This document shows positions 1-20,000 of a stretch of 20,000 bases of DNA, piece after piece. Origin of the DNA: an uncultured virus (IMG/VR IMGVR_UViG_3300037840_000505) (taxonomy: Duplodnaviria > Heunggongvirae > Uroviricota > Caudoviricetes); IMG/VR virus record IMGVR_UViG_3300037840_000505; one strand, written 5' to 3'. Made by a program: the position numbers and the translations under genes. Positions within the stretch are counted from its first letter, which is position 1; every line of letters starts with the position of its first letter. A model generated the notes under the pieces. It had not been told where the DNA came from. It ran no database searches and worked only from the letters and a program-made list of their open reading frames with translations.

Positions 1-867
1 TGCCTCATCGCTGGATCGGCCGCCTTCGATCGGCAGCACAAAGGAACGCTGCGCCGGTGGCGGCTGGTGCTTGCGTTTGGCGCTCAGCACCTCGAGATGC
101 TTTTTGACCCATTTCGGCATGGGATGCGCCTTGCGGTCACGAGCGAACGCCACGATGGCGCTATAGGGCAGCGCCTCTTCGATCGCGCTCATCTGAGGAT
201 AGCCGATCTCGATCCCGAAGAGCAGCGTCGCCTGGGCCCAGTTCACCGTCCATTGCTGGGCTGGCGTCAACGCTGGCTCAAGCTCCGCGTCGCCAAGCCT
301 CTTTATATCGTTATAGTTATCTACGTTTACGGGATTTTGGGAATGTGACGCCTTCCCGTGACGCGGCGCAACACCGCGGCCGGGAACGCCATCTGTTTGA
401 TATCGCGTCGGTTTATAATCCGTGAGGCGCGCTATCCCCGTCACGTCTCGCGTCACATGTGACGCTTGCGCCGTCACCGAAGCGTCACCAGCGTCACGCC
501 CGTCACTCGCTGTGACGGTGGATAACCCGGGGGACAACTCGGCGGCTTTCCGCCGTGCGCGCAACGCTCGCATGCGCCGCGTGCCCGGCCGCAGCATGGC
601 TTCGGCCGGCGCTTCCGGCGCATCGTCGACCAGGCGCCCGTCTTCGATCATGCCCAGATGCTCGAGCGCGCCCAGCGCACGGGCCGCCGCGCCTTCCCCG
701 ATGCTGATGCGCTCCGAGAGATAGGCGGTACGTCCCGCCATCGGCAGATCGGCGAGTTCCGGGCTGTCGCGCAGCTCGGCGCGGATCGCCAGGATGACCG
801 AGCGCGGCAACCGCGCGTGCCGCGCTGCAGCGACACAGAGCAGGTGCGCTTTGAGGCAATCACACAT
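1..867 (-). CDS. Phage replication initiator (lambda O-like), running off the left edge
   Basis: Manual translation: stop-free from ATG 867 to the window edge (MCDCLKAHLL...YLSERISIGEGAAARALGALEHLGMIEDG...RRMRALRARRK...VTASDGRDAGDASVTAQASHVTRDVT...). N-terminal wHTH-like segment, basic helix, then an iteron-coded VT-rich linker. GAGGG RBS upstream. Not in the ORF track. Confidence 0.75.
   Translation of the reverse strand, partial: MCDCLKAHLLCVAAARHARLPRSVILAIRAELRDSPELADLPMAGRTAYLSERISIGEGAAARALGALEHLGMIEDGRLVDDAPEAPAEAMLRPGTRRMRALRARRKAAELSPGLSTVTASDGRDAGDASVTAQASHVTRDVTGIARLTDYKPTRYQTDGVPGRGVAPRHGKASHSQNPVNVDNYNDIKRLGDAELEPALTPAQQWTVNWAQATLLFGIEIGYPQMSAIEEALPYSAIVAFARDRKAHPMPKWVKKHLEVLSAKRKHQPPPAQRSFVLPIEGGRSSDEA
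301..537. repeat. Putative replication origin: about 10 CGTCAC/GTGACG iterons, AT-rich tract and DnaA-box-like pair
   Basis: CGTCAC or its complement near 345, 358, 439, 451, 459, 472, 483, 492, 501, 512; perfect palindrome GCGTCACATGTGACGC 450-465; AT-rich 301-345; TTATCCACC (517-525, minus) and TTGTCCCCC (529-537, minus) 3 bp apart. Confidence 0.7.
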
Positions 868-894
868 TGGCGCATTCCCTCGCGAAAATAGCTG

Positions 895-922
895 TTGACA
901 GGTGACAGAATGTCACTATGCT
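895..922 (+). promoter_or_regulatory. Sigma70-type promoter with a palindromic operator in the spacer
   Basis: TTGACA (895-900), 16 bp, TATGCT (917-922); inverted repeat GTGACA-gaa-TGTCAC at 902-916. Confidence 0.75.
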
Positions 923-933
923 TTGACCCGTTC

Positions 934-968
934 GCCGCGGGCTGCAACCCCGGCACTCACCAACGGAG
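934..968 (+). promoter_or_regulatory. CTGCAA-loop hairpin copy 1 plus CCAACGGAG RBS
   Basis: GCCG(C)GGG-CTGCAA-CCC-CGGC 934-954; CCAACGGAG 960-968; ATG 976. Confidence 0.65.
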
Positions 969-975
969 TAACGCG

Positions 976-1152
976 ATGAGCGATCTTTCCATGTCGGTCG
1001 GGCGCGATTACCGCACCTCGAGCCAGTACGAATATGTGATCTACCGCGATGAGCGCGTTGTCGCGCGGCAGGGTTTTTACCGCAACTACAGCCAAGCCAA
1101 ACGCGCCGGGCTGGCAGCCGCGGCGAAGCTCACCGTTAAGACGGAGGCTTGA
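976..1152 (+). CDS. Small hypothetical protein (58 aa), first gene of the cassette
   Basis: GGAG RBS 7 nt before ATG 976; MSDLSMSVGRDY...TEA. Confidence 0.75.
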   Translation: MSDLSMSVGRDYRTSSQYEYVIYRDERVVARQGFYRNYSQAKRAGLAAAAKLTVKTEA

Positions 1153-1155
1153 GCC

Positions 1156-1386
1156 ATGACCATACATTTGAGCGTCGATCCCGATGCCTCGCTGCTGGCT
1201 CGGCTCTACGAAGTCGATATTCAGCGCTGCGGCGAGCACTGGGGAACCTTGAGCACCATCGCGTTGAGCCCGATGCGCGCCTGCGAGATTGCCGAGCGCA
1301 AGGCATTCGAGGCCAACGCCCGCGCCGGCGATCTCTCGGACTGGTTCGCCAGTGCCGTGCGCGAAGTCACCGACGAGGAGGGTTGA
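1156..1386 (+). CDS. Small acidic hypothetical protein (76 aa)
   Basis: GGAGG RBS; follows the previous stop by 3 nt. Confidence 0.75.
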   Translation: MTIHLSVDPDASLLARLYEVDIQRCGEHWGTLSTIALSPMRACEIAERKAFEANARAGDLSDWFASAVREVTDEEG

Positions 1387-1389
1387 GCT

Positions 1390-1599
1390 ATGAACTACGC
1401 AATCGAGTGCCGGCGGGTGCACACTCGCGGCCATTGGCTGTTTCTCGGCAATCATCGGTGCGACTTGGCGACCGCGAAATGCGTTGCGCAAGACACCGCG
1501 ACCGAATTGCAGCGCGAAACGCGGGTTGTGAATTATGGGAAAACCTTTCGCATCTTTGCCGAGTTTAGCGCGCTCGGGCAGCCCTTGCGGCCAGAATAG
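1390..1599 (+). CDS. Small hypothetical protein (69 aa)
   Basis: GGAGG RBS; follows the previous stop by 3 nt. Confidence 0.7.
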   Translation: MNYAIECRRVHTRGHWLFLGNHRCDLATAKCVAQDTATELQRETRVVNYGKTFRIFAEFSALGQPLRPE

Positions 1600-1604
1600 C
1601 GCGA

Positions 1605-1647
1605 CCCTGCTGTCTCGCCCGTACCTGGTGCGGGCGAGGTGGCAGGG
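1605..1647 (+). other. 20-bp intergenic RNA hairpin
   Basis: Arms 1605-1624 and 1628-1647 pair fully with 4 G-U wobbles on the + strand. Confidence 0.6.
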
Positions 1648-1667
1648 CCGTCCGGCTCTGTACCCTG

Positions 1668-1699
1668 GCGCCGCCTGCAAGCGGTGCGACCCAACGGAG
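1668..1699 (+). promoter_or_regulatory. CTGCAA-loop hairpin copy 2 plus CCAACGGAG RBS
   Basis: GCGCCGC-CTGCAA-GCGGTGC 1668-1687; CCAACGGAG 1691-1699; ATG 1708. Confidence 0.65.
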
Positions 1700-1707
1700 G
1701 ATCTACG

Positions 1708-2577
1708 ATGTACGCCAACACCATTTACGACGCCCGCGCTCGCTTCGACGGTTCCGCTCGCGCGATGACCGAGGACGAAATGCGCCGCAAGGCACCTTCG
1801 ATCTTCGCGACCCAAGCGCACGAAAGCCGCTCCGAACGCTTTGCGCCCATCCCCACGATCGACGTCTTGCGCGGGCTGCAGGAAGAGGGATTTTACCCGC
1901 TCGCCTGCCGCCAGGCACTTACCCGCGTCCCGGGCAAGGAGGATTTCACCAAGCACATGATCCGCCTGCGCCGATTGGATCAGGACGCCGCCTATAAAGT
2001 CGGCGACACGGTTTGCGAGATCGTTCTCAAAAATGCCAATGACGGCACGTCGGCCTATGATCTGATGGCCGGATTGTTCCGCATCCGGTGCTTGAACAGC
2101 CTTGTCGCGCAAACCGGGACGATAGACACCGTCAAGGTGCGGCACTCGGGCGACGTGCAAGGCAAGGTGATCGAGGGGACCTATCACGTGCTCGAGGAGG
2201 CGCAGAAAGCTTTGGCCGCACCGCAGGACTGGAGCCAGCTCACCATGGGACGCGACGCCAAGACGGTTTTTGCGGAAGCGGCGCACGTGCTGCGCTTCGG
2301 TGACGCGGAGGGTAATGTCACGACGCCGATCGCCGCGGACCAGCTGCTCAGCCCCCGGCGCTACGATGACCGGGCGGACGATCTGTGGACGACCTTCAAT
2401 GTCGTGCAGGAGAACACCATCAGGGGCGGCTTGCATGCCTGGGGACGCGACGCCAATAACCACCGGCGCCGCACCACAACCCGCGAGGTGAAGGGCATCG
2501 ACCAGGACGTGAAGCTGAATAAAGCGCTTTTTGTCCTTGCCGATCGGATGGCGCATATCCTCAAATCGGCCGCCTAA
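1708..2577 (+). CDS. DUF932 domain protein
   Basis: Motifs APSIFA..AHESRSERF.PIPT, FTKHMIRLR, EIVLKNANDGTSAYDLMAGLFRIRCLNSLV, DLWTTFNVVQEN.IRGG, GIDQDVKLNKAL; ATG 1708 with GGAGG RBS. Confidence 0.92.
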   Translation: MYANTIYDARARFDGSARAMTEDEMRRKAPSIFATQAHESRSERFAPIPTIDVLRGLQEEGFYPLACRQALTRVPGKEDFTKHMIRLRRLDQDAAYKVGDTVCEIVLKNANDGTSAYDLMAGLFRIRCLNSLVAQTGTIDTVKVRHSGDVQGKVIEGTYHVLEEAQKALAAPQDWSQLTMGRDAKTVFAEAAHVLRFGDAEGNVTTPIAADQLLSPRRYDDRADDLWTTFNVVQENTIRGGLHAWGRDANNHRRRTTTREVKGIDQDVKLNKALFVLADRMAHILKSAA

Positions 2578-2589
2578 CCACGCAACGCA

Positions 2590-2627
2590 CGGGCGTCCTG
2601 GCTGCAACCAGGCGCCCGCCTTTTTTT
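2590..2627 (+). terminator. Intrinsic terminator-like hairpin whose loop is CTGCAA (copy 3)
   Basis: CGGGCG(T)CCTGG-CTGCAA-CCAGG-CGCCCG 2590-2618 followed by CC and T7, then CGGAG RBS. Confidence 0.7.
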
Positions 2628-2640
2628 CGGAGCACAGGCA

Positions 2641-2850
2641 ATGACGCTGTACGAAGCCTATTTGGCCGGCTGGCAAAGCTGCTGCGATGGGGTTGACGGC
2701 CGATATTGGTTTACGCGACCGCAGGACGTGGAACGCGAGCCCGCGCTGAGACGCGCGTGGCAACAAGGATGGAGCGACGCATTCGAGCGCGAAGAAGAGG
2801 ACGAAGAGCCGTTGCCCGAAAGCTTCCTGTCGTTGGAAGATCAGACGTAA
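2641..2850 (+). CDS. Rmf/CrpP-fold-like small protein with an acidic tail
   Basis: AYLAGW...RRAWQQGW pattern resembles the ribosome modulation factor fold; GGAG RBS. Confidence 0.55.
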   Translation: MTLYEAYLAGWQSCCDGVDGRYWFTRPQDVEREPALRRAWQQGWSDAFEREEEDEEPLPESFLSLEDQT

Positions 2851-2858
2851 GCGCGGTC

Positions 2859-2921
2859 GCGGGCGGCGCCCCTGCAAGGGCCCGCCCGCTGCCCGCATTA
2901 TCCCTCGCGACGCCAACGGAG
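2859..2921 (+). promoter_or_regulatory. CTGCAA-loop hairpin copy 4 plus CCAACGGAG
   Basis: GCGGGCGG(C)GCCC-CTGCAA-GGGC-CCGCCCGC 2859-2889; CCAACGGAG 2913-2921. Confidence 0.65.
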
Positions 2922-2959
2922 CCGTCGGGAGGGGATACGAGAGAAAAGGGGATATCACG

Positions 2960-3178
2960 ATGTCAGCAGCGGAATTCAAGGCATGGCGCGAGCGTCTGGG
3001 GTTGAGCCAGCGCGGCGCCGCGGCGCGGCTTGGCCTCTCCAAGCGCACGATCATCCGCTACGAGAAAGGCACGCACCGGGTCAACCGTCATGTCGCGTTG
3101 TCCTGCGCGATTGCCGAAAGCATGGTCAAGCCTCACCCGAAGGCCGCGCGCGCGGCGCTGCAGCCCGTCGAGGAATAG
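2960..3178 (+). CDS. XRE-family helix-turn-helix regulator (Aca-like position)
   Basis: EFKAWRERLGLSQRGAAARLGLSKRTIIRYEKG HTH signature; last gene of the cassette. Confidence 0.9.
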   Translation: MSAAEFKAWRERLGLSQRGAAARLGLSKRTIIRYEKGTHRVNRHVALSCAIAESMVKPHPKAARAALQPVEE

Positions 3179-3543
3179 GTGAGCGGCGCATTGCCGAGCT
3201 TCAGGGGCGAACCCGGATCCAGCCGGGCTCGAGGATCATCGGTAAACCTCGGCCCTTCCCATACCGGGTGAGGAATGCGCGGCCTCACTCCGCCCATGTT
3301 GCCGGTGCGCGCGCGACCCGCTTGCGCCTTTTTGATACGGTCGGCATTGGCCTCGGCCTTTTCCTCCCGAGTGCGCTCGCGCAGTTCGATGCCTTTGTCG
3401 CGCAGGCGCTTCAATCGGCCACCGATCGCGAATTCGTTGCGCCGCGGCATCTCTGCCGCGATCTCGAAGGCGCGCTTGCCGGCGTTCCACGCGAGGATCA
3501 GGATTTCGTCTTCAACCGAGGACCATTTAGGGGATGTGCTCAT
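3133..3543 (-). CDS. GcrA-like / Myb-like HTH protein
   Basis: WSSVEDEILILAWNAGKRAFEIAAEMPRRNEFAIGGRLKRL resembles the GcrA N-terminal HTH. Confidence 0.65.
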   Translation of the reverse strand: MSTSPKWSSVEDEILILAWNAGKRAFEIAAEMPRRNEFAIGGRLKRLRDKGIELRERTREEKAEANADRIKKAQAGRARTGNMGGVRPRIPHPVWEGPRFTDDPRARLDPGSPLKLGNAPLTYSSTGCSAARAAFG

Positions 3544-3941
3544 AGTAGCCTCTTGCCAAATTCGAGGGTTTCCAGGACGGCTTTAGCCTGCTCGCGGAGT
3601 TCGGCGCGCTCGCGATCGGTCCTTGCGTGATTGATCCGGCTTTTGAGGTGCGAGGGCATCATGGACCAGTGGCCGGAGCACCAGCTACGGCCCAAAGGCA
3701 CGTCGCGCTCGCATCCGATCGCCTGGCATTTCGGCAAAATGGGCTCGCGTCGGTGGATTGGCGTCGTATCATCAGGCGAGAGTTTGAGGACGTCGTCACC
3801 CAGCGGCGGCAGCACTTCGAGCCCGTCGGCGCACGCATCGGGAGTGCGGCAGGCCGCGGGCAAGCGGATCTGCTGGTCGTCGATCGTCTCGGCAACCGCC
3901 AGGCATATAGGGCACTGGAAGAATTCGTGGACGACGCTCAC
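3540..3941 (-). CDS. Cys-rich hypothetical protein (putative Zn-binding)
   Basis: CPIC and CQAIGC...WCSGHW motifs; 4-bp overlaps with both neighbours. Confidence 0.7.
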   Translation of the reverse strand: MSVVHEFFQCPICLAVAETIDDQQIRLPAACRTPDACADGLEVLPPLGDDVLKLSPDDTTPIHRREPILPKCQAIGCERDVPLGRSWCSGHWSMMPSHLKSRINHARTDRERAELREQAKAVLETLEFGKRLL

Positions 3942-4282
3942 GGCCCGGCGTCCTTGCGGCGATGCCGAGCGATTTCGCGCTCGATGTGCACCTGCGCCTT
4001 CAAGAGATCGAGTAGCGCGCCGTTGCCCGGCTTGCGGCCGGCGCGCACGATGTATTTGACGATGGCGCCGCAGTTGTAGTTGAGCCCGAACGCCTCGATC
4101 ACATCGCGGATGTCATGACCGTCGGCGATGTAGTAATCCGCCGTCGCTGCCCACGGCCGAGGTGCGAAATCGCCGGTAATGCTACCCGGCTTCGCAGGCG
4201 CCGCGACGTTTTCGGATTGCCAATTCGGGCAGAGCGAGTGCTCGCTGAAGCACCGGCAATCCGGGCCGATCAAGCAGCTCAT
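3938..4282 (-). CDS. DUF3310 domain protein
   Basis: YY...DIRDVIEAFGLNYNCGAIVKYIVRAGRK...DLLKA; ATG 4282 overlaps the upstream stop. Confidence 0.8.
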   Translation of the reverse strand: MSCLIGPDCRCFSEHSLCPNWQSENVAAPAKPGSITGDFAPRPWAATADYYIADGHDIRDVIEAFGLNYNCGAIVKYIVRAGRKPGNGALLDLLKAQVHIEREIARHRRKDAGP

Positions 4283-4530
4283 TCGACCGCTCCGGGCTGA
4301 GCACGGGGAGCGAGGCTCGGGCGAGCGAGCTTCCCATTGCGCTGCGCTACAGCCCTTGTCGCTAGTACCGGGTCGATCCGGTCCAGCGCTGCGACATCGG
4401 CAAAGAGCGCTACACACCCATCGCAGATATGCGGGGCCAAGGCTCCCAGCCCCTGGAAGAGGAGGGATACCTCGCTCTTCCCCTGGGCACAGAAAGAGCA
4501 ATGGAGGTTGAGGTTGGGGCGGGTGGTCAT
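4279..4530 (-). CDS. ClpX C4-type zinc finger protein
   Basis: LHCSFC...EVSLLFQG...HICDGCV signature, no ATPase domain. Confidence 0.85.
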   Translation of the reverse strand: MTTRPNLNLHCSFCAQGKSEVSLLFQGLGALAPHICDGCVALFADVAALDRIDPVLATRAVAQRNGKLARPSLAPRAQPGAVE

Positions 4531-5213
4531 GCCGGATCATCCAGCCAGAAGGTGATCGGAGGGCCTTCATGCCGCCAATCCCAGAGATACCAGGCATAGG
4601 GGAAACGGGGGCTAGCCTTGTCGTCATCCGACCATTTGGGGCGGCGCGGGAGGATCAGCTTTGCCGCGTAGGGCCAGGCGAAGAGCGGGCGGTTGATGGC
4701 TGGCGCGTCGAATTCGTGGCGCTGCAGGATCGCGACCTTCCCTCTCCAAGGCTCAGTCACGATCAGCGCCTGCCGAACGAATTCACGCGCGAGATCGAAT
4801 GGCGGATTGGTGACGACCGCCGGCATTCGTTGCGGCCGGCGCCGGTCGTGCACGAAGTCGATTATCTGTGTGTCCGGCCAGCCGTAATCATGGATATCCG
4901 AGGCGAAGACGCGATATCCGGCGCGCTCCAGTTCGGCTGCCATGCGGCCATCGCCAACCGCCGGCTCCCACACTTCAACTACCGTATCGGGCTGTGTGAC
5001 CGCAGTACCCGGCAACTGAAGTCGAAACGACACTTCCGCCAGCAGCGCCCGCGTCACCCACGGTTCGGTAAAGTACGCATCCCTGGCATTGCGCACATAC
5101 CCGGCTTCACCGTGACTCGCGCTCTTGCGTGCCGGGGCGACCGGACCGAGGAGATCGGCCTCATCCGGCCGCTCGGCGCTGCGCTTGAAGGTGGCGTTGC
5201 CGAGCGGGCTCAT
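4527..5213 (-). CDS. Phage DNA amino-methyltransferase (probably N6-adenine)
   Basis: DAYFTEPW, motif I-like WEPAVGDG, catalytic VTNPPF, YAWYLW. Confidence 0.85.
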   Translation of the reverse strand: MSPLGNATFKRSAERPDEADLLGPVAPARKSASHGEAGYVRNARDAYFTEPWVTRALLAEVSFRLQLPGTAVTQPDTVVEVWEPAVGDGRMAAELERAGYRVFASDIHDYGWPDTQIIDFVHDRRRPQRMPAVVTNPPFDLAREFVRQALIVTEPWRGKVAILQRHEFDAPAINRPLFAWPYAAKLILPRRPKWSDDDKASPRFPYAWYLWDWRHEGPPITFWLDDPA

Positions 5214-5272
5214 CGCCGCACCCAATTACTGGCGTCGCCCGGGCTGCGCTCGAACGATTTCACGACGCTCAT
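5210..5272 (-). CDS. 20-aa coupling mini-ORF
   Basis: MSVVKSFERSPGDASNWVRR*, ATGA overlaps at both ends. Confidence 0.4.
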   Translation of the reverse strand: MSVVKSFERSPGDASNWVRR

Positions 5273-5505
5273 TGCCGGTAATCCCGCATATGGCCTATCA
5301 CGCGGCCCTCGCGCCAGATCGCGCCATCCGGCTCGACATGCGCATAGCTCGGCGGCGGCTTCAGCGCGGTGCCGTCGCGGTCAACCTGGTCGAGGTAGCA
5401 CAGCGCGCCGCTTCCGTCGTCGTGCCTGACGTAGCGCACCGGGACGCCGTCGATGGTGAATTCGCCGATCACCTCGCCGAGCTTCACGCCACAGGGCTCA
5501 GCCAT
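5269..5505 (-). CDS. Hypothetical protein
   Basis: Coupled to neighbours; GGAGG upstream. Confidence 0.7.
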   Translation of the reverse strand: MAEPCGVKLGEVIGEFTIDGVPVRYVRHDDGSGALCYLDQVDRDGTALKPPPSYAHVEPDGAIWREGRVIGHMRDYRQ

Positions 5506-5719
5506 TGCCGCCCTCCAGCGCTCGCCGCTCTACCTCGCGACCGAGATCAGTAAGAACGAATCGATTGGAGCGCGGATCGTATATCGTCCAACCACGCTCG
5601 ATGCTCCGGCGCAACCGAGCGCGCCGAGCTTTCGAGATTGGCCGCCGCGCAGGAGCCCGATCAAACGCCCGCATCTGCTCGCCGATCGACAGCACGGGAA
5701 AAGGGGCCTGCTCAGCCAT
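5498..5719 (-). CDS. Hypothetical protein (possible short winged helix)
   Basis: MAEQAPF...LRRSIERGW...FVLTDLGRE; starts at ATG 5719 overlapping the upstream stop. Confidence 0.65.
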   Translation of the reverse strand: MAEQAPFPVLSIGEQMRAFDRAPARRPISKARRARLRRSIERGWTIYDPRSNRFVLTDLGREVERRALEGGNG

Positions 5720-5843
5720 TGCCGCCCGCCCGCGCCAGGGCCATGCGCTTCCTTGTTGCGGCGGCGCGTTTCGCCAGGAGCTGGCCGGCGACACGCGCCT
5801 TGCTGCCGAACTGGCGATGAACTGTAAGGCTGCCGGCGCTCAT
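5712..5843 (-). CDS. Small basic hypothetical protein (43 aa)
   Basis: Manual: MSAGSLTVHRQFGSKARVAGQLLAKRAAATRKRMALARAGGNG*, fills the gap with coupled ends. Confidence 0.55.
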   Translation of the reverse strand: MSAGSLTVHRQFGSKARVAGQLLAKRAAATRKRMALARAGGNG

Positions 5844-6082
5844 CGCCGCACCCTGCGGATCGGGATGATCTGAGCCTCGGGTTTGGGCTCAACCAGCTGC
5901 AGCCAGAACGGCAACCCCTTGTCGTTCAACCGGTCGATCAGCCGCTGGGCTTTTGATTCGGCGTCCTGTTGGGTCTCTCCGAGGACGATCAATTCCGGGC
6001 AGAGGTCATTATCCTTGAAGACCTGGCAGAGACACGCCGGGGATTGACCGAAGGAGGGGCCGAGGCGGTAGGGCTTCGTCAT
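5840..6082 (-). CDS. Hypothetical protein
   Basis: ATGA overlaps at both ends. Confidence 0.7.
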   Translation of the reverse strand: MTKPYRLGPSFGQSPACLCQVFKDNDLCPELIVLGETQQDAESKAQRLIDRLNDKGLPFWLQLVEPKPEAQIIPIRRVRR

Positions 6083-7263
6083 GCCGGCGCCCCCTTCGGT
6101 AGGGCGAGGGGTTTCAGCCCATCAGCGGCCCTCAGCTGGTTCGCTAGATCGTAGAGGCGCTGCAGCGAGCTCGGCTTGCCGTCGAGCACCACTTCGACTT
6201 TCTCAAGCCAAACCGTTCGGCCATCTTGCGCGTCGGAAGGCTGGCCCTCGCGAATGATCGCGCTTCGGCCTTTGCCGCGCAGAAACGCCGCGACCTGCTC
6301 CGGCGATTGCACCAGGCTCACGCCCTTCTCGGCGATGAATTTGGCAATCGCGTCTCCGTCGGGCCCGGCGGGCTTCGGTTTCAGCGGCGGGGCTGTTGGC
6401 CGCAACGGCACCGCGGCGCGCGGGACAACCGGTCTAGCCGGTTCCGGCGCAGCGAGCGGCTTGGCTGCGGCGGCGCGTTGCGGCGTCAGCGCTCCGCGCA
6501 GCCCCGCGACGAGGAGCGGGATCGCGCCGGAACCACCGAGCCCGAGCGGGCTTGTCGCCGCCCATCGCTCGGGGCCGAGTTTTTCGAGCGCCCGGCGCAG
6601 CTCTTCGGCGCTTCCGTTTTCGTTCAGGAACCGCGCCGCCGCCTCAAAGAACGCGCCGTGCAATACTCCCCGTTCGCGGCCCCAGCACGCCATCAGCACC
6701 GCGATGGCAGAACCGAGATTAGCCGCGCCCTGGGTTTTCAGCGCCCTGCGCAGCGACGGGATCGCCGCGGTTTTGCCTGGCGGCACCTGTTTGATCGCCA
6801 TCGCGTAACCGAGCAATTCGAGACCGGCCGCATCGGCAAGGCGCTTGAGTTCTACCGCCTCCGGGCGCCCCGCGAGCAATTCCCCCTTGAATAGAGCTTG
6901 TGGGCTAAGCCCAAGGCGGTCGCGGTTCGCCGACGCGAAGATTTCAGCGGCCTGGTCAGTCGAGGTGACGCCGACGACGACCGCCGGCACCAGCGGCTGG
7001 CCGACCGCCCGCGCCGCGGCGACGCGGTGCTGGCCGTCGATAATTTCCCAACGGCCGCCCTCCTTCGCCATGACGATGACGACCTGAAACTTCGCCCAGC
7101 GAAAATTCGCGGCTATTCGGGCGATATGACGCTGCGAGGCAGGACGGTCGATCGTGCGCTGATACGCCTCATCGACGTCGAGCCGGTCGACCGGGAGCCA
7201 CGCGAGCTCCGGACGCGGACCCGGACCGGGCGCGTCGGCAGCGTTCAGCACCGCGTCCACCAC
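6079..7263 (-). CDS. ParB/Srx N-terminal domain protein
   Basis: LAWLPVDRLDVDEAYQR...WEIIDGQHRVAAA...VPAVV; Pro/Ala linker and an extra C-terminal domain. Confidence 0.85.
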   Translation of the reverse strand: MVDAVLNAADAPGPGPRPELAWLPVDRLDVDEAYQRTIDRPASQRHIARIAANFRWAKFQVVIVMAKEGGRWEIIDGQHRVAAARAVGQPLVPAVVVGVTSTDQAAEIFASANRDRLGLSPQALFKGELLAGRPEAVELKRLADAAGLELLGYAMAIKQVPPGKTAAIPSLRRALKTQGAANLGSAIAVLMACWGRERGVLHGAFFEAAARFLNENGSAEELRRALEKLGPERWAATSPLGLGGSGAIPLLVAGLRGALTPQRAAAAKPLAAPEPARPVVPRAAVPLRPTAPPLKPKPAGPDGDAIAKFIAEKGVSLVQSPEQVAAFLRGKGRSAIIREGQPSDAQDGRTVWLEKVEVVLDGKPSSLQRLYDLANQLRAADGLKPLALPKGAPA

Positions 7264-7511
7264 GGACCTTCAGCGGGTTCTTCGGCGAGTTCTTTATCAC
7301 CCTCGGCGCTCAGCCAGTTGCCTTCCCTGCGGGTGACCGCGCGCGTCCCGGTGACCCGGTTGACGATCTCGACCTCGCCTTCGGGCCAATGCTCGTCCGC
7401 CCATCCTTGGGCGCCGAGGAGCGACTTGAAATGCTTGGGTCCATGGATGCCGCGCCTGGCGCTCCACGGCCGCTCCAGGCGCCTATCGTGCTGTTCCTTG
7501 CGGCTCAGCAT
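7245..7511 (-). CDS. Hypothetical protein
   Basis: ATG 7511 overlaps the stop of the upstream small ORF. Confidence 0.6.
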   Translation of the reverse strand: MLSRKEQHDRRLERPWSARRGIHGPKHFKSLLGAQGWADEHWPEGEVEIVNRVTGTRAVTRREGNWLSAEGDKELAEEPAEGPWWTRC

Positions 7512-7609
7512 CGCCTCAGCCACAGATAAAGCTTCTCAAGACAGCCCATCGCAAAGGCAAACCCGCAGCTAATACTGACGAGCGAGACCAGGAGGAAAAG
7601 ATCGCTCAC
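7505..7609 (-). CDS. Small membrane peptide (34 aa)
   Basis: Manual: MSDLFLLVSLVSISCGFAFAMGCLEKLYLWLRRC*, GTGA overlap with the upstream gene. Confidence 0.55.
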   Translation of the reverse strand: MSDLFLLVSLVSISCGFAFAMGCLEKLYLWLRRC

Positions 7610-8130
7610 GGATGCGCCGCCTCGGCTTCGGTCTCGCGCTTGACGAGCAAAACCGAGAACCCTCCCCGGCCGAAAAGATAATTGAGCGCGCGCCGCCAGT
7701 TAAGGGAACGCAGTTCATCCGCTCCCGAGTAGGCGATGCCTTGATCCGCCAGAGCCGCGCGGATGACGTGAAGGACAACCGATTTGCCGGCACCTTCGGG
7801 CCCGCTTACCTCGACGGTTACTGGGTGCAGCTGGCGTGCGGCCGGCGGCGGGGCGCGATCTACGTCTGACCCCTCCCCGCCGGCCTTCTCCTCGCTCGGT
7901 GTATCCCAGGATGCGGCGACTAACTCAACCACGTCCCCGTATAGTTGGGTGGCAATGCCCAGCGCGTCCTCTGCGCGCGTCGGCGCCATCGGGCACGGTA
8001 TCGGCTCGGGCAGCTGTGGCGCCGCGGATTCGCCGTTGCGCCAGCGCTCCAAGGCTTCGGCGCGCCGGTTGAACTCGGGCGCAGCCATATTGGCTTTGGC
8101 ACGGAAGCGAGTCTTGAAGAAGGCCGTCAT
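7606..8130 (-). CDS. Hypothetical protein with a C-terminal P-loop motif
   Basis: VEVSGPEGAGKS Walker A-like motif in a short C-terminal domain. Confidence 0.65.
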   Translation of the reverse strand: MTAFFKTRFRAKANMAAPEFNRRAEALERWRNGESAAPQLPEPIPCPMAPTRAEDALGIATQLYGDVVELVAASWDTPSEEKAGGEGSDVDRAPPPAARQLHPVTVEVSGPEGAGKSVVLHVIRAALADQGIAYSGADELRSLNWRRALNYLFGRGGFSVLLVKRETEAEAAHP

Positions 8131-16941: not shown

Positions 16942-17457
16942 TCACCCAGCGAGCGACAGAGCGGCCAGTGGCGCCTCGAATTCACGGCGCCTCGGGTAGC
17001 GTTTGGCCGCCCGGTCGTAGAGCACCACGTTGACGCTGGCTGCGAGGTTCATGCACCCACGCGTCGGCACCACGATGATGTTCCGGCAGCGATCGGTGAT
17101 CTGTTTGCCGAGCGTTCCGTCTTCCGGACCGAAAATATAAAACGCGCGCTCCGGGTGGTTGTATTCAGGGAGCGGAATGGCCCCTTCGATCAAATCCACC
17201 GCGACGGGAACGCAGCCGAATGGAATGACCGAGAACAGGTCATCCACATTGATGAGAGGAAAGTGACGATGGCCTTTCATGGTGTCCGTACTGGCCTCGC
17301 GATAGCGCCGACCCGTAGTGACAACCATCGCGGCATCGTAGACCCAAGCGGCACGGAGGACCGACCCGACATTGTTGTGGTCTTTGGGCTGGAACAGCCC
17401 GATGGCAGCATATCCGCGCCCGCGCGGCAGTTCGACGATCTTCCCCATCAAACGCAT
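16942..17457 (-). CDS. SpoU/TrmH-family (SPOUT) RNA methyltransferase
   Basis: PKDHNNVGSVLRAA (motif 1), YIFGPEDGTL (motif 2), VPTRGCMNLAASVNVVLYDR (motif 3). Confidence 0.92.
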   Translation of the reverse strand: MRLMGKIVELPRGRGYAAIGLFQPKDHNNVGSVLRAAWVYDAAMVVTTGRRYREASTDTMKGHRHFPLINVDDLFSVIPFGCVPVAVDLIEGAIPLPEYNHPERAFYIFGPEDGTLGKQITDRCRNIIVVPTRGCMNLAASVNVVLYDRAAKRYPRRREFEAPLAALSLAG

Positions 17458-17698: not shown

Positions 17699-20000
17699 CT
17701 ACCGTGGCGCGAGCGCTCGATCAACCGCCTGCATCTGCTCGCGGCCGGCATGGGCGATCTGAATTTCGCTGTAGTAGATCGTGTCGATGAGCTGGCGCTT
17801 TTCGTCGGGGGCGATCCCCGGATCCTTCCAGATATCGCGGATCAGGTGCGAGTGCTCGGCCAAGGCCGAATGGATACCGTCCAACTGGACAAAGAGCCGC
17901 GGGCCGCCCGCGGCCTGGATGCGGTCGAGCGCTTCGAGGTCGCCTTCCTGGGCTTTGGCCTTCCAGGTATCGAAGAAGCGCTTGTTGCGTTCATAATCGT
18001 CATAGAAGCGCTGGATCGATTCGGCGCTTCCCGAGGGATAGCGCACGGCAAAGGCCTTGATGACCGGGATATCCGCGAGGGTGTCGGCAGGCCTGGGAGG
18101 ATCCGGAACGAGGCCCGCCTTGCGCAGACCCGCATCGGCGATATTGAGCGCGTAGACCCCGAGATTGCCGGTCCACGCCCGCAGGTAGTTCTCGAGGAGA
18201 ATGGGCGTCGTCAAGGCGCGCGCGACGCCGCCGGCCATCGGCGAATCCATGTCGAGGCTTTCCTGCCGCACCCGGGGAAAAGCCGCGATCAGTTGGCCCA
18301 GCTTCTTCGCCGTCTCGCTGGTATAGGGCGCGTACTGGTATTCCGGCAATTGGCCTTCGAGCTCGGCCGGGACCAGGGTCCTGTTGGTGAAGGCCGAGCG
18401 GTTGGCGAACTGGTCGATCACCGGCGAGATGGCGGAGGGGTAGAAATTGGGGACCACAGTATCGGCGATCGACTTGCCGAATTCCCGGAAGGCGTCGGGG
18501 TTCGAATTATTGTAGGCTTCCAAGGCTCGCTCGGTCCCGGACCCGAAGATGACGCCCATGCCCCAGGGTTTCGGCACGCGGAAAATATGGCCGCCGTCTC
18601 CGCCGTCCTCCTTCGCCTTCCCAGTCATGATGATCCAGAAGAGGTCTTTCTCCCATTGCGGGATTTCCTTGTACCGCGGATCGTCATGGTTGGCGGCCCA
18701 GAGCAGCGCCGAGGGCAGCATGATTCCCCCGGCGATCTTCAGGGTCGTGGGTATCGGGTTCTGGATGAACGCTCGCGCCACCCGGTCGGTGTCTTGCAGG
18801 GTGATATTGGCAAACGCGGTTATCATGTTGTAGGCGCGCATCTGCGCCCCGATTCGCGCGGCGTCGACCGCGACGTCACGCGAGGCAAACCCCGCCGCCT
18901 GGATCTCTGCCTTTGCTGTTTGTGCGCCCTCGGGCAATTCCGCTTCGCGCAGGGTCTTTTTGAAGGCGCCGAGATGCGACGCGTTCTCGGCAAGCTCGGT
19001 CACCATCCGCAAGGGGTTGAGGATGAACTTGTCCGCGGCATGAAAAGGCGCGGCGATCGCCGCTCCCATCTTTTGCCGATAGAGCGTCGCCGGGTCGGCG
19101 ATGACGTTCCACGCCCGCTCCAGGATCCCGGTCTCGCCGTTCAATTTTTCGAGGTTCTCCTGCAGATAGCGCCGGTCCATCGCCACCCGCGAGATGTTGG
19201 AGCCGCCCGATTTGAGCCAGTTCTGGAAATCCTCGTCCTTGGAGAGAAGACCGATAAACCCGCGCGCCATGTCGACCGGCGAGAAGACGCCTTTCCCGGT
19301 CATCGCGGCGTACATATAATCGCGGAAGGTGTGGCGCAGCTGGAAGTCCGGCGTCAGCACCGCCCCGGCCCTGAGCCACGAGGCCGGCTTTGCCAGGAGA
19401 CTTTCGATCGCCCCGACCGACTGGCGGTCCAAGGCCTTCATCGCCGAGGCGAGCTCGGGGTCGACCGCCCAGGTTTCCCTGACACCATCGCGGAAGACGC
19501 CGATCTCGCCTTCCCTGGGAGCCGCGCCCTGCGCCATGAAGTCGAAGAGTTCGTCAGAGAGACCCTGGGCGCGCAGCACTTCGCGGATCTGGTCGGCGAT
19601 GTCCTGCGGCAGGGCTTCGCCCGGTCTGATCGGCGCTTCGGCCTCGCGCGCGATCGGCCCGCGTTCCGGGAAGAGGTCGGGCTGACGCGGTTCGGGAGGC
19701 AGTACCGACCCGTCGACGTCGGTCACCGGCACATCGGCGAAGCGGGTCGCCGGGTTGGCGACGGCATCCCTCAGATGGGCTTCGCTCACATCGCCGATCG
19801 CGCCGTGCGCGTCGGAGGCTTCGCGCAGGATGTCGACGAGCTTTTGTCCGACCGCGTTCTTCTCCGCCATCGCGATGTAGGTATAGGTGTTGCGTACGAT
19901 CGATTCGATCGGGTCGATGATCTCGCGCTCCGATCCCTCGATGCGGTGTATCGGATTGGAGGCCTGGAGCGAGGCACCCATTCCCTGGCCGCGCTCGGCG
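17699..20000 (-). CDS. Large polyvalent / virion ejection protein, C-terminal LPD38 domain (N-terminus outside the window)
   Basis: Frame stays open to the window edge; DDPRYKEIPQWEKDLFWII...FRVPKPWGMGVIFGS..ER...PVIDQFANRSAFTNRTLVP...Y..YTSETAK signature. Confidence 0.85.
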   Translation of the reverse strand, partial: AERGQGMGASLQASNPIHRIEGSEREIIDPIESIVRNTYTYIAMAEKNAVGQKLVDILREASDAHGAIGDVSEAHLRDAVANPATRFADVPVTDVDGSVLPPEPRQPDLFPERGPIAREAEAPIRPGEALPQDIADQIREVLRAQGLSDELFDFMAQGAAPREGEIGVFRDGVRETWAVDPELASAMKALDRQSVGAIESLLAKPASWLRAGAVLTPDFQLRHTFRDYMYAAMTGKGVFSPVDMARGFIGLLSKDEDFQNWLKSGGSNISRVAMDRRYLQENLEKLNGETGILERAWNVIADPATLYRQKMGAAIAAPFHAADKFILNPLRMVTELAENASHLGAFKKTLREAELPEGAQTAKAEIQAAGFASRDVAVDAARIGAQMRAYNMITAFANITLQDTDRVARAFIQNPIPTTLKIAGGIMLPSALLWAANHDDPRYKEIPQWEKDLFWIIMTGKAKEDGGDGGHIFRVPKPWGMGVIFGSGTERALEAYNNSNPDAFREFGKSIADTVVPNFYPSAISPVIDQFANRSAFTNRTLVPAELEGQLPEYQYAPYTSETAKKLGQLIAAFPRVRQESLDMDSPMAGGVARALTTPILLENYLRAWTGNLGVYALNIADAGLRKAGLVPDPPRPADTLADIPVIKAFAVRYPSGSAESIQRFYDDYERNKRFFDTWKAKAQEGDLEALDRIQAAGGPRLFVQLDGIHSALAEHSHLIRDIWKDPGIAPDEKRQLIDTIYYSEIQIAHAGREQMQAVDRALAPR

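Follow-up and report, generated by a model that had tools for sequence, protein, structure and literature searches.

The closest described counterparts of the element reported here are the RNA motifs of the Aca regulators. The Aca1 motif is ~20 nt long, lies directly after the transcription start, has a 3-bp upper stem delimited by unpaired bases, and ends ~20 nt before the start codon; Aca1 binds it at ~61 nM with no translational silencing. Aca RNA motifs are also found between genes of one operon, a covarying RNA motif is predicted in the 5' untranslated region (5'-UTR) of Aca10 operons, and RNA binding has so far not been detected for Aca10 and Aca12 (Feussner et al., 2026; PMC13551039). 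The element in question lies in a 20,000-nt stretch from an uncultured virus of the Caudoviricetes (IMG/VR record IMGVR_UViG_3300037840_000505; this whole stretch is called the window), where four hairpins with an invariant CTGCAA loop (CUGCAA in RNA) and differing stems precede genes of what appears to be a six-gene plus-strand operon flanked by minus-strand genes. Judged from sequence, these hairpins appear to be a real, selected and uncatalogued RNA element. They may be mRNA tags, one per independently initiated gene, that are read by the operon's own Aca-like helix-turn-helix (HTH) protein, and so Aca-type RNA operators for autogenous shut-off, a reading that we favour over each of the others considered but hold with somewhat less than even confidence.

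The hairpins and the sequences attached to them are as follows.

934 to 954, plus strand: hairpin 1, with a 4-bp lower stem, a bulged C, a 3-bp upper stem and the CUGCAA loop
960 to 968, plus strand: CCAACGGAG, the A/C-rich spacer and Shine-Dalgarno sequence of the open reading frame (ORF) ORF1
1668 to 1687, plus strand: hairpin 2, with a 7-bp stem including one G-U pair and the CUGCAA loop, followed by CCAACGGAG (1691-1699) and the DUF932 gene start
2590 to 2618, plus strand: hairpin 3, with a 6-bp lower stem, a bulged U, a 5-bp upper stem and the CUGCAA loop
2590 to 2632, plus strand: extended element of hairpin 3, in which U7 (2621-2627) and then CGGAG follow, terminator-like and ribosome-site-proximal together
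2859 to 2889, plus strand: hairpin 4, with an 8-bp lower stem, a bulged C, a 4-bp upper stem and the CUGCAA loop
2902 to 2933, plus strand: a second hairpin with CCAACGGAG (2913-2921) in its loop and no start codon behind it

The first-pass annotation of this DNA had described four such hairpins, all intergenic and on the sense strand, and they are indeed found there, with loops at 942-947, 1675-1680, 2602-2607 and 2872-2877 and stems of 7, 8, 11 and 12 bp when one bulge is allowed. The hexamer CTGCAA by itself is not enriched in the window (8 observed, 8.4 expected); four of the eight sites close stems of 7-12 bp, and the other four close 0-1 bp, in agreement with the annotation's remark that they lack stems. 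In the background, a 6-nt loop closed by at least 7 bp is found at 0.79% of 39,908 positions, against which four of eight gives a binomial P of ~3e-7 for a loop that was picked post hoc. A shuffle test of positions 800-3300 is independent of that choice of loop: the top stem-closed hexaloop has four copies there, compared with one copy in 385 and two copies in 15 of 400 dinucleotide shuffles, and never more than two. The folding z-scores of single copies with their flanks are modest (-0.3 to -2.2), so the signal is one of repetition and not of stability. The bulge noted earlier on the 5' arm of three copies is present in copies 1, 3 and 4 and absent from copy 2, but its position (3, 5 and 4 bp from the loop, respectively) is not conserved, and what is conserved is therefore only the loop, the GC-rich stem and the placement. 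The annotation's view that this is not a described family agrees with an Rfam covariance-model scan of window positions 1-4000, which gave no match at E<=10 and no self-cleaving ribozyme core of known class. Likenesses to twister-sister, to RNase P substrates and to attC sites were dropped as other defining parts of each are missing, the Rfam scan testing twister-sister only. No description of a CUGCAA-loop element was found in the literature, although supplementary data of related surveys could contain it.

Of the three copies said to be followed by CCAACGGAG, two are, with the sequence at 960 and 1691 forming spacer and ribosome site; the third occurrence, at 2913, begins 24 nt past copy 4 and sits in the loop of the second hairpin, and no start codon follows it at the distance proper to a ribosome site. 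The fourth downstream pattern, U7 and CGGAG after copy 3, is as had been described and is also terminator-like; copy 3 with its U7 tract resembles an intrinsic terminator and is absent from the listing of a consensus scan. In the record of phage JBD30 the Aca1 hairpin is likewise trailed by CCAAC before GGA, and CCAACGGAG is thus best taken for a Shine-Dalgarno sequence preceded by an A/C-rich spacer. The consensus of CsrA sites is ANGGA; a CsrA-type reading of CCAACGGAG was dropped on account of the Shine-Dalgarno distance and of the equivalent sequence in record L122, which has no ANGGA (L and G numbers are our labels for the records compared). The order of a last fixed-loop hairpin and then a start-less hairpin holding the spacer and ribosome site is seen in two independent cassettes, that of the window (2902-2933) and that of L122/L175 (6680-6740 in L122), the regulator gene having its own site further on. 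Such a start-less hairpin may uncouple the regulator gene from the control of the cargo genes.

Loops of this class recur well outside the window. A viral scan for the loop followed by CCAACGGAG returned 79 stretches, two of them self, with six non-self loci that have a stem of at least 5 bp at the match; L417/L454 (one phage type) and L432 are real leaders, belonging to two unrelated phage types, and L394, L437 and L455 were set aside for ORF overlap or the lack of a start codon. An earlier viral pattern scan matched at least 119 stretches, and among the matches listed two had a CTGCAA stem of at least 6 bp, one of them away from the match. A cassette of G003 with AAA_5, DUF3150 and DUF2201 genes carries five or more ribosome-site hairpins whose loops are of the (C/U)UGCA type, and G004 has three. 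Filtering 100 loci of this ATPase family (AAA/vWA cassettes; duplicates included, sense matches de-duplicated) for hairpins that have a TGCA loop and lie close to a ribosome site gave 64 matches on the sense strand and 20 on the antisense strand. At least three such hairpins were present in 8 of the 100 loci; of 15 control cores, 14 reached this number in 0-1 loci, and the remaining one overlaps the sites of the TGCA hairpins. Matches inside ORFs or in atypical context were removed by hand (two in L482, one each in L484, L503 and L507, and all in L492, L511, L519 and L571), and 45 hairpins from 10 loci were kept. All five stem positions of these show both C-G and G-C pairs, loop length ranges from 5 to 9 nt (15 loops of 6 nt and 24 of 7 nt), the stem ends 5-15 nt upstream of the ribosome site in all 45, and 32 are preceded by a second helix; pairing and spacing are set by the filter, and the swapping of pair types is independent of it. 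A Watson-Crick-anchored count over 11 loci places a hairpin at 47 of 62 ribosome sites. A pairing count from a MAFFT alignment (59.5% paired against 51.1% shuffled, with 0 of 500 shuffles as high) was set aside and is not relied on, the alignment being non-structural, mixed in loop length and prone to understate pairing. At the gathering threshold no Rfam family matched over the hairpin arrays of 15 loci, and L469 gave only three sub-threshold, chance-level matches.

On this sequence evidence, the CUGCAA loop appears to be part of a wider (C/U)UGCA-loop family in unrelated phages, and the window seems to carry just the last hairpin of the larger two-helix module of the AAA cassettes. The recurrence with swapped stem pairs in unrelated phages bears out the annotation's proposal of a conserved-loop, single-stranded structure under selection, which it had left as either RNA or single-stranded DNA. 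Here RNA is favoured over template-strand DNA by an excess of sense-strand G-U over A-C pairs (16 vs 4 in total, P=0.012), which is carried by the adjacent upstream helix of the related modules (13:0) and not by the loop hairpin (3:4). In the G012 module the loops are non-palindromic (CUUGCU). In 44 of the 45 leaders (L482-L508) GTCAC or GTCAA stands 3' of the Shine-Dalgarno sequence, and other lineages (L505, L494, L496) use other fixed endings; to our knowledge, pairing with 16S rRNA does not account for these letters. The AAA cassettes L505 and L494, which have no TGCA hairpin, carry other repeated structured leaders with no Rfam match at gathering threshold.

The DUF932 gene of the operon offers a second set for comparison, of 192 unique loci. 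At least three distinct-stem copies of one loop occur on the sense strand of two loci, the window's own and L227, and on the antisense strand of none, with 0.022 expected by permutation; at least two copies occur in 15 loci on the sense strand and in two on the antisense strand. L227 has seven AUGGC-loop hairpins with seven different stems (3555-7598) and a terminal HTH-like gene (7926-8126), and its loop has the same five letters as stand within the Aca2-bound IR2 hairpin of phage ZF40; Aca2-like RNA recognition could be tested more cleanly on L227 than on the window. L122/L175, a Bosea prophage, has four UGGCAG-loop hairpins, of which three have almost the same stem, and ends in a ribbon-helix-helix (RHH)-like gene. 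In L126, two Rfam Hammerhead_II matches (5847-5907 and 6150-6211) occupy the slots between stop codon and ribosome site. Hammerhead-like patterns were matched in 8 of the 192 loci and, among the five that were scanned with Rfam or represented in the scan, only L126 passes the cut-off; hammerheads directly 3' of the stop codon of DUF932 or a neighbouring gene are Rfam-confirmed in L126 and seen at pattern level in L121, L125 and L137. A lone 14-bp CUGCAA hairpin lies just past the DUF932 stop codon in L285 (4819-4852), away from any ribosome site. TGCA loops are not enriched in the DUF932 set (49 sense, 33 antisense), three or more being present only in the window's own locus; the CUGCAA array is likewise absent from all other loci of the set, and most DUF932 cassettes are without such arrays.

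The remaining features of the operon are the following.

895 to 922, plus strand: predicted sigma70-like promoter, with -35 TTGACA (895-900), a 16-nt spacer and -10 TATGCT (917-922)
902 to 916, no strand assigned: perfect palindrome GTGACA-N3-TGTCAC filling the promoter spacer, a candidate DNA operator for the HTH protein
976 to 1152, plus strand: ORF1, 58 amino acids (aa), no family
1156 to 1386, plus strand: ORF2, 76 aa, no family, 3 nt from ORF1 with no hairpin in the gap
1390 to 1599, plus strand: ORF3, 69 aa, no family, 3 nt from ORF2 with no hairpin in the gap
1605 to 1647, plus strand: 20-bp hairpin between the ORF3 stop codon and hairpin 2, possibly an RNase III-type site or a terminator
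1708 to 2577, plus strand: DUF932 (PF06067) protein, 289 aa, Pfam E 1.3e-36, phrog_12094
2641 to 2850, plus strand: ORF5, 69 aa, no family
2960 to 3178, plus strand: terminal XRE-type HTH protein, 72 aa, Aca-like, HTH_31 E 1e-9 and HTH_3 E 2e-9

The promoter matches the consensus at 10 of 12 positions, and three promoter-like sites were found in 4 kb compared with 0.7 in shuffles. Transcription is predicted to start near 926-930, with hairpin 1 immediately 3' of the start and 21 nt from its end to the ATG at 976. One hairpin each is placed in the operon leader and in the three long gaps (108, 63 and 109 nt), and none in the two 3-nt gaps. The 16.4 kb of L471 upstream hold no second copy of the palindrome, nor does the window, and no further ribosome-site CTGCAA hairpin. 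The region of the 20-bp hairpin (1600-1712) folds with z = -3.36, and long hairpins also lie upstream of the fixed-loop hairpins in L227 and L122. ORF1-3 and ORF5 had no matches in Pfam, PHROGs, NCBIfam or PADLOC, a search that included no dedicated Acr library; a likeness of ORF5 to ribosome modulation factor (RMF), seen by eye, is no more than a weak lead and within chance range (Atlas score 0.80, in a cluster with 11% PF04957).

The operon is probably an early gene block of the phage and counter-defensive in purpose. Elsewhere the window has phage genes for Cro-like, ParB-like, HU and methyltransferase proteins and an LPD38 polyvalent protein. The C-terminal part of the large polyvalent protein with LPD38 lies at 17699-19981 (minus strand), and a SpoU-family RNA methyltransferase gene (16942-17457, minus strand, PF00588 E 4e-14) was matched in none of the ten other records. 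Record L120/G006 is identical to the window over 901-3200, and the same HTH protein is also encoded on a 65-kb contig, the 35.6 kb compared being part of the phage only. The same sequence is obtained from two DNA runs, which may be where it originated. As DUF932 relatives at ~70% are found in Hyphomicrobiales genomes, the host is probably an alphaproteobacterium.

Close homologues of the terminal HTH protein were not found by word search, the best single-domain relatives being at ~40-55%, and 16 non-self HTH loci have no CTGCAA array. The structural model (predicted local distance difference test score, pLDDT, 90) matches best to NE0471 (Z 9.7, root-mean-square deviation (rmsd) 3.0) and to Aca10 (7XI5; Z 9.4, rmsd 0.9 over 54 residues), with Aca1 (Z 7.3) and Aca2 (Z 7.1) amid many XRE domains; Foldseek gave no match at E<=0.001. 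A profile of 39 sequences of the HTH family reaches Aca2 at E 1.6e-6 (including the 8W35 chain), Aca10 at 3.2e-5 and Aca1 at 5.9e-5, with NE0471 and a designed protein ranking above the Aca proteins. The protein has no match to PF08965 (Aca2/YdiL) at E<=0.01, which ZF40 Aca2 does match. As modelled, then, the HTH protein appears Aca-like in profile and fold, and with the palindrome in the promoter this makes the Aca precedent offered by the first-pass annotation an apt one. The annotation had also proposed co-occurrence with the HTH gene as a check, and here the outcome is mixed. Besides DUF932, the HTH is the sole protein of the window's phage with a credible match in the hairpin-bearing records compared (43% in G017, with a nearly identical recognition helix, and 39% in G013); no other protein joins the 35.6 kb of this phage to those phages. 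An HTH gene lies near the cassette end in four of the six hairpin-positive records that were searched over their whole length (G003, G012, G013 and G017), with the match in G014 ~19 kb off. Pairwise comparison of seven cassette-end HTH proteins gives two groups, that of the window, G017 and G013 and that of G003, G012, G019 and G022, and the same loop accompanies both subfamilies, one of which is also found with another loop or with no hairpin.

If the HTH protein is the reader, the strong host-type promoter would fire on entry, and the HTH protein would accumulate late, its gene being the last and lying behind the terminator-like copy 3 and the start-less ribosome site after copy 4. It would then bind the DNA palindrome, stopping transcription, and bind the CUGCAA hairpins, damping translation or altering the stability of existing mRNA as Aca2 does and Aca1 may; alternatively, the hairpins could titrate it. 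Consistent with this, a small HTH regulator is encoded at the operon end, the inverted repeat at 902-916 overlaps the promoter, hairpin 1 (934-954) follows the predicted start directly and ends ~20 nt before the first start codon, and a hairpin with fixed loop and swapped stem is present in every long intergenic gap. The match of the L227 loop to the Aca2-bound IR2 of ZF40 points the same way, as does the terminal RHH-like gene of L122/L175, which recalls Aca14. Two exact hairpin and ribosome-site patterns are not enriched in genomes of the host group (1 match against 2 for the reversed control in 201 genomes, and 1 against 4 in 121 genomes), counts that speak mildly against a general host leader signal.

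Several observations weigh against an HTH reader. The operon has no recognisable acr gene, and the CUGCAA loop differs from the probe loops of Aca1, Aca2, Aca10 and Aca12. Aca10, the closest Aca fold, is so far without RNA binding and Aca1 without translational silencing (PMC13551039), and since XRE folds are common, a Z of 9.4 is no evidence of function. The hairpins end 5-15 nt upstream of the ribosome site, a distance at which occlusion is not assured. Among the seven HTH proteins, a small sample with some incomplete records, loop class and regulator subfamily do not go together: (C/U)UGCA-type loops go with both groups, and the second group is also found with AUGGC loops (G022) and without hairpins (G019). 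G003, rated complete and with at least five hairpins, matches the window-type HTH profile weakly (best E 5e-4), G015 (62% complete) has seven hairpins and no HTH profile match, and the hairpin-negative G018 and G019 both have an HTH match. Additionally, the HTH gene of G003, G012 and G013 is set apart from the hairpin genes by a terminator or a leader of its own.

It is possible, though distinctly less so than an HTH reader, that the hairpins are mRNA processing or stability tags read by host machinery (a nuclease, chaperone or ribosome), marking or protecting the 5' ends of monocistronic pieces and keeping the ribosome site open, with the HTH protein acting on DNA only. The same loop in phages that share only a distant HTH with the window would fit this, as would the position of copy 1 at the predicted 5' end, the 20-bp hairpin upstream of copy 2, the second helix before 32 of 45 AAA-cassette hairpins, and the self-cleaving ribozyme that can take the same slot in a DUF932 relative (L126); the available part of one review suggests that such ribozymes, hammerheads among them, process polycistronic transcripts (PMC6765202). 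A plain protective hairpin, however, has no need of an invariant loop, and there is the lack of enrichment before host genes for the two exact patterns, which are narrow tests. We also know of no host enzyme that prefers a CUGCAA-type loop, which counts against a host reader. A combined version, in which unrelated phages of Alphaproteobacteria converged on a portable (C/U)UGCA hairpin at a fixed distance before the ribosome sites of early cargo genes, read by a shared factor and not by their own repressor and swappable with self-cleaving ribozymes, is improbable but worth stating; the factor could be one whose usual target is the anticodon arm of tRNA-Ala(UGC). Less probable again is mimicry of an anticodon loop, of tRNA-Ala (UGC) or tRNA-Cys (GCA), that a synthetase, modifying enzyme or anticodon nuclease would bind or cut, with the hairpin as operator or decoy. 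Among the 45 hairpins of the AAA set, CUUGCAA is the commonest loop (11 cases, on a 5-bp stem) and lies one base from the UUUGCAA loop on the 5-bp arm of Stappia tRNA-Ala(UGC), the loop of Stappia tRNA-Ala(GGC), AUGGCAU, starts like that of L227, and the window encodes the SpoU-family methyltransferase. Against these stand the canonical 7-nt register in only 16 of 45 (11 UGC and 5 GCA, two anticodons), with 29 off-register, a loop range of 5-9 nt, 6-nt loops in the window of which 0 of 4 are canonical, a SpoU gene unmatched in other records, and AUGGC letters that the Aca2 target already explains.

Termination or antitermination signals of the boxB or put kind, where a loop-bound protein lets polymerase pass internal terminators, would account for the terminator-like copy 3 and the promoter-proximal copy 1, and a gene of G003 resembles, by eye, a NusG paralogue. 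Such a site is needed once near the promoter and not at every ribosome site, while the hairpins are spaced from the Shine-Dalgarno sequence (5-15 nt in 45 of 45, partly from the filter), the U-tract is absent from three of four window copies, and general family scans of window proteins found no N-like or NusG-like gene; we regard this as very unlikely. The NusG/RfaH-paralogue-like gene, itself called by eye, lies at L469 14765-15265, downstream of the G003 early cassette. Just as unlikely is that the hairpins act as DNA (a single-stranded promoter, a cruciform or a recombination site for cassette shuffling) or as kissing loops through the UGCA core. UGCA is palindromic, G-U and A-C pairs are balanced in the loop hairpin alone (3 vs 4), and cargo genes vary widely among relatives, as they do in PeSL cassettes according to the available part of PMC4122927. 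The adjacent helix, on the other hand, has 13 G-U and no A-C pairs on the sense strand, stems of differing sequence are ill-suited to homologous recombination, the G012 module is retained with loops that are not palindromic, and the sigma70-like promoter already accounts for transcription. An origin by chance, or by neutral copying of a single ancestral spacer, would agree with single copies that fold just modestly better than shuffles, but it is hardly credible and is largely refuted by the conservation pattern: 0 of 400 shuffles have more than two copies, the stems pair yet share no sequence, and 8 of 100 AAA loci have at least three TGCA-loop hairpins compared with 0-1 for 14 of 15 control cores.

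Whichever factor reads it, the hairpin probably serves as a tag through which all genes of the block can be handled together by a single regulator or host enzyme. Should the HTH protein read it, Aca2-type autoregulation through both DNA and RNA would reach well beyond acr operons and outside the Aca2 family, as a gene-by-gene regulon, and the hairpin would point to candidate anti-defence genes, which here are DUF932 and the four orphans. With a host reader, it would be an undescribed mRNA signal exploited by unrelated phages, and a convergent shared tag would be a new mode of controlling counter-defence mRNAs as a batch and could serve to locate their genes. What the window adds is the loop hairpin on its own, in a DUF932 operon that is unrelated and has the full Aca-like layout, and a case in which loop and regulator do not simply co-vary, a point against the HTH protein as reader. 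It is also a compact test system, with a single promoter and palindrome, four stems that vary naturally and a protein of 72 residues.

Among other known systems, the PeSL cassettes of T4-type phages share a repeated hairpin before variable early genes; as far as the available part of PMC4122927 describes them, PeSLs combine promoter and terminator and conserve bases of the stem, in contrast to the free stems and fixed loop seen here, and since a promoter-like site is found only before copy 1, the window array is not of this type. In L126 the same slots between stop codon and ribosome site are taken by intergenic hammerheads of the kind found in phage early cassettes (Rfam RF02276), but the window element differs from these in being a single hairpin with no ribozyme core or Rfam match. 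With regard to lambdoid nut sites, the boxB analogy of the first-pass annotation is unsupported: no boxA or N-like protein turned up in general scans of the window, where no profile search was aimed at them. Some candidate RNAs of Fremin et al. (2023; PMC10690425), placed upstream of DUF932 and DUF2201 genes, share the gene context, with seven rows for DUF932 and three for DUF2201 in the available part of that source; the four rows compared are marine or freshwater, 45-77 nt long, with two flagged as terminators, and the comparison is one of descriptions only.

The Aca systems are nearer. Aca10 (PDB 7XI5) shares the closest Aca fold, at 30% identity, and binds a palindrome overlapping its promoter, as described in the available part of PMC9410881; the candidate palindrome of the window likewise lies in the promoter, but the Aca10 operator has another sequence and 21 bp compared with 15 bp, and the loop is different. 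With Aca1 and Aca2 the window shares a palindrome in a strong sigma70 promoter, a leader hairpin of ~20 nt, intergenic copies and a terminal HTH protein of the same structural group (PMC13551039, and the available part of PMC6765145). Copy 1 matches the 5'-UTR motif of Aca1 in all positional features, and in JBD30 the hairpin is followed by CCAAC and the ribosome site as here. The differences lie in the CUGCAA loop (the leader loops of JBD30 and ZF40, read from their records, are others), the lack of a known acr gene, a protein outside the Aca2 Pfam family, four copies that span every separately translated gene, and a loop shared with phages that have another HTH subfamily. As there is no recognisable acr gene and no Aca2 family match, and motif and regulator are discordant, the hairpins are not classed as an Aca motif, and their binding by the HTH protein is a prediction from sequence; by analogy, they nevertheless most plausibly work most like the RNA motifs of Aca1 and Aca2.

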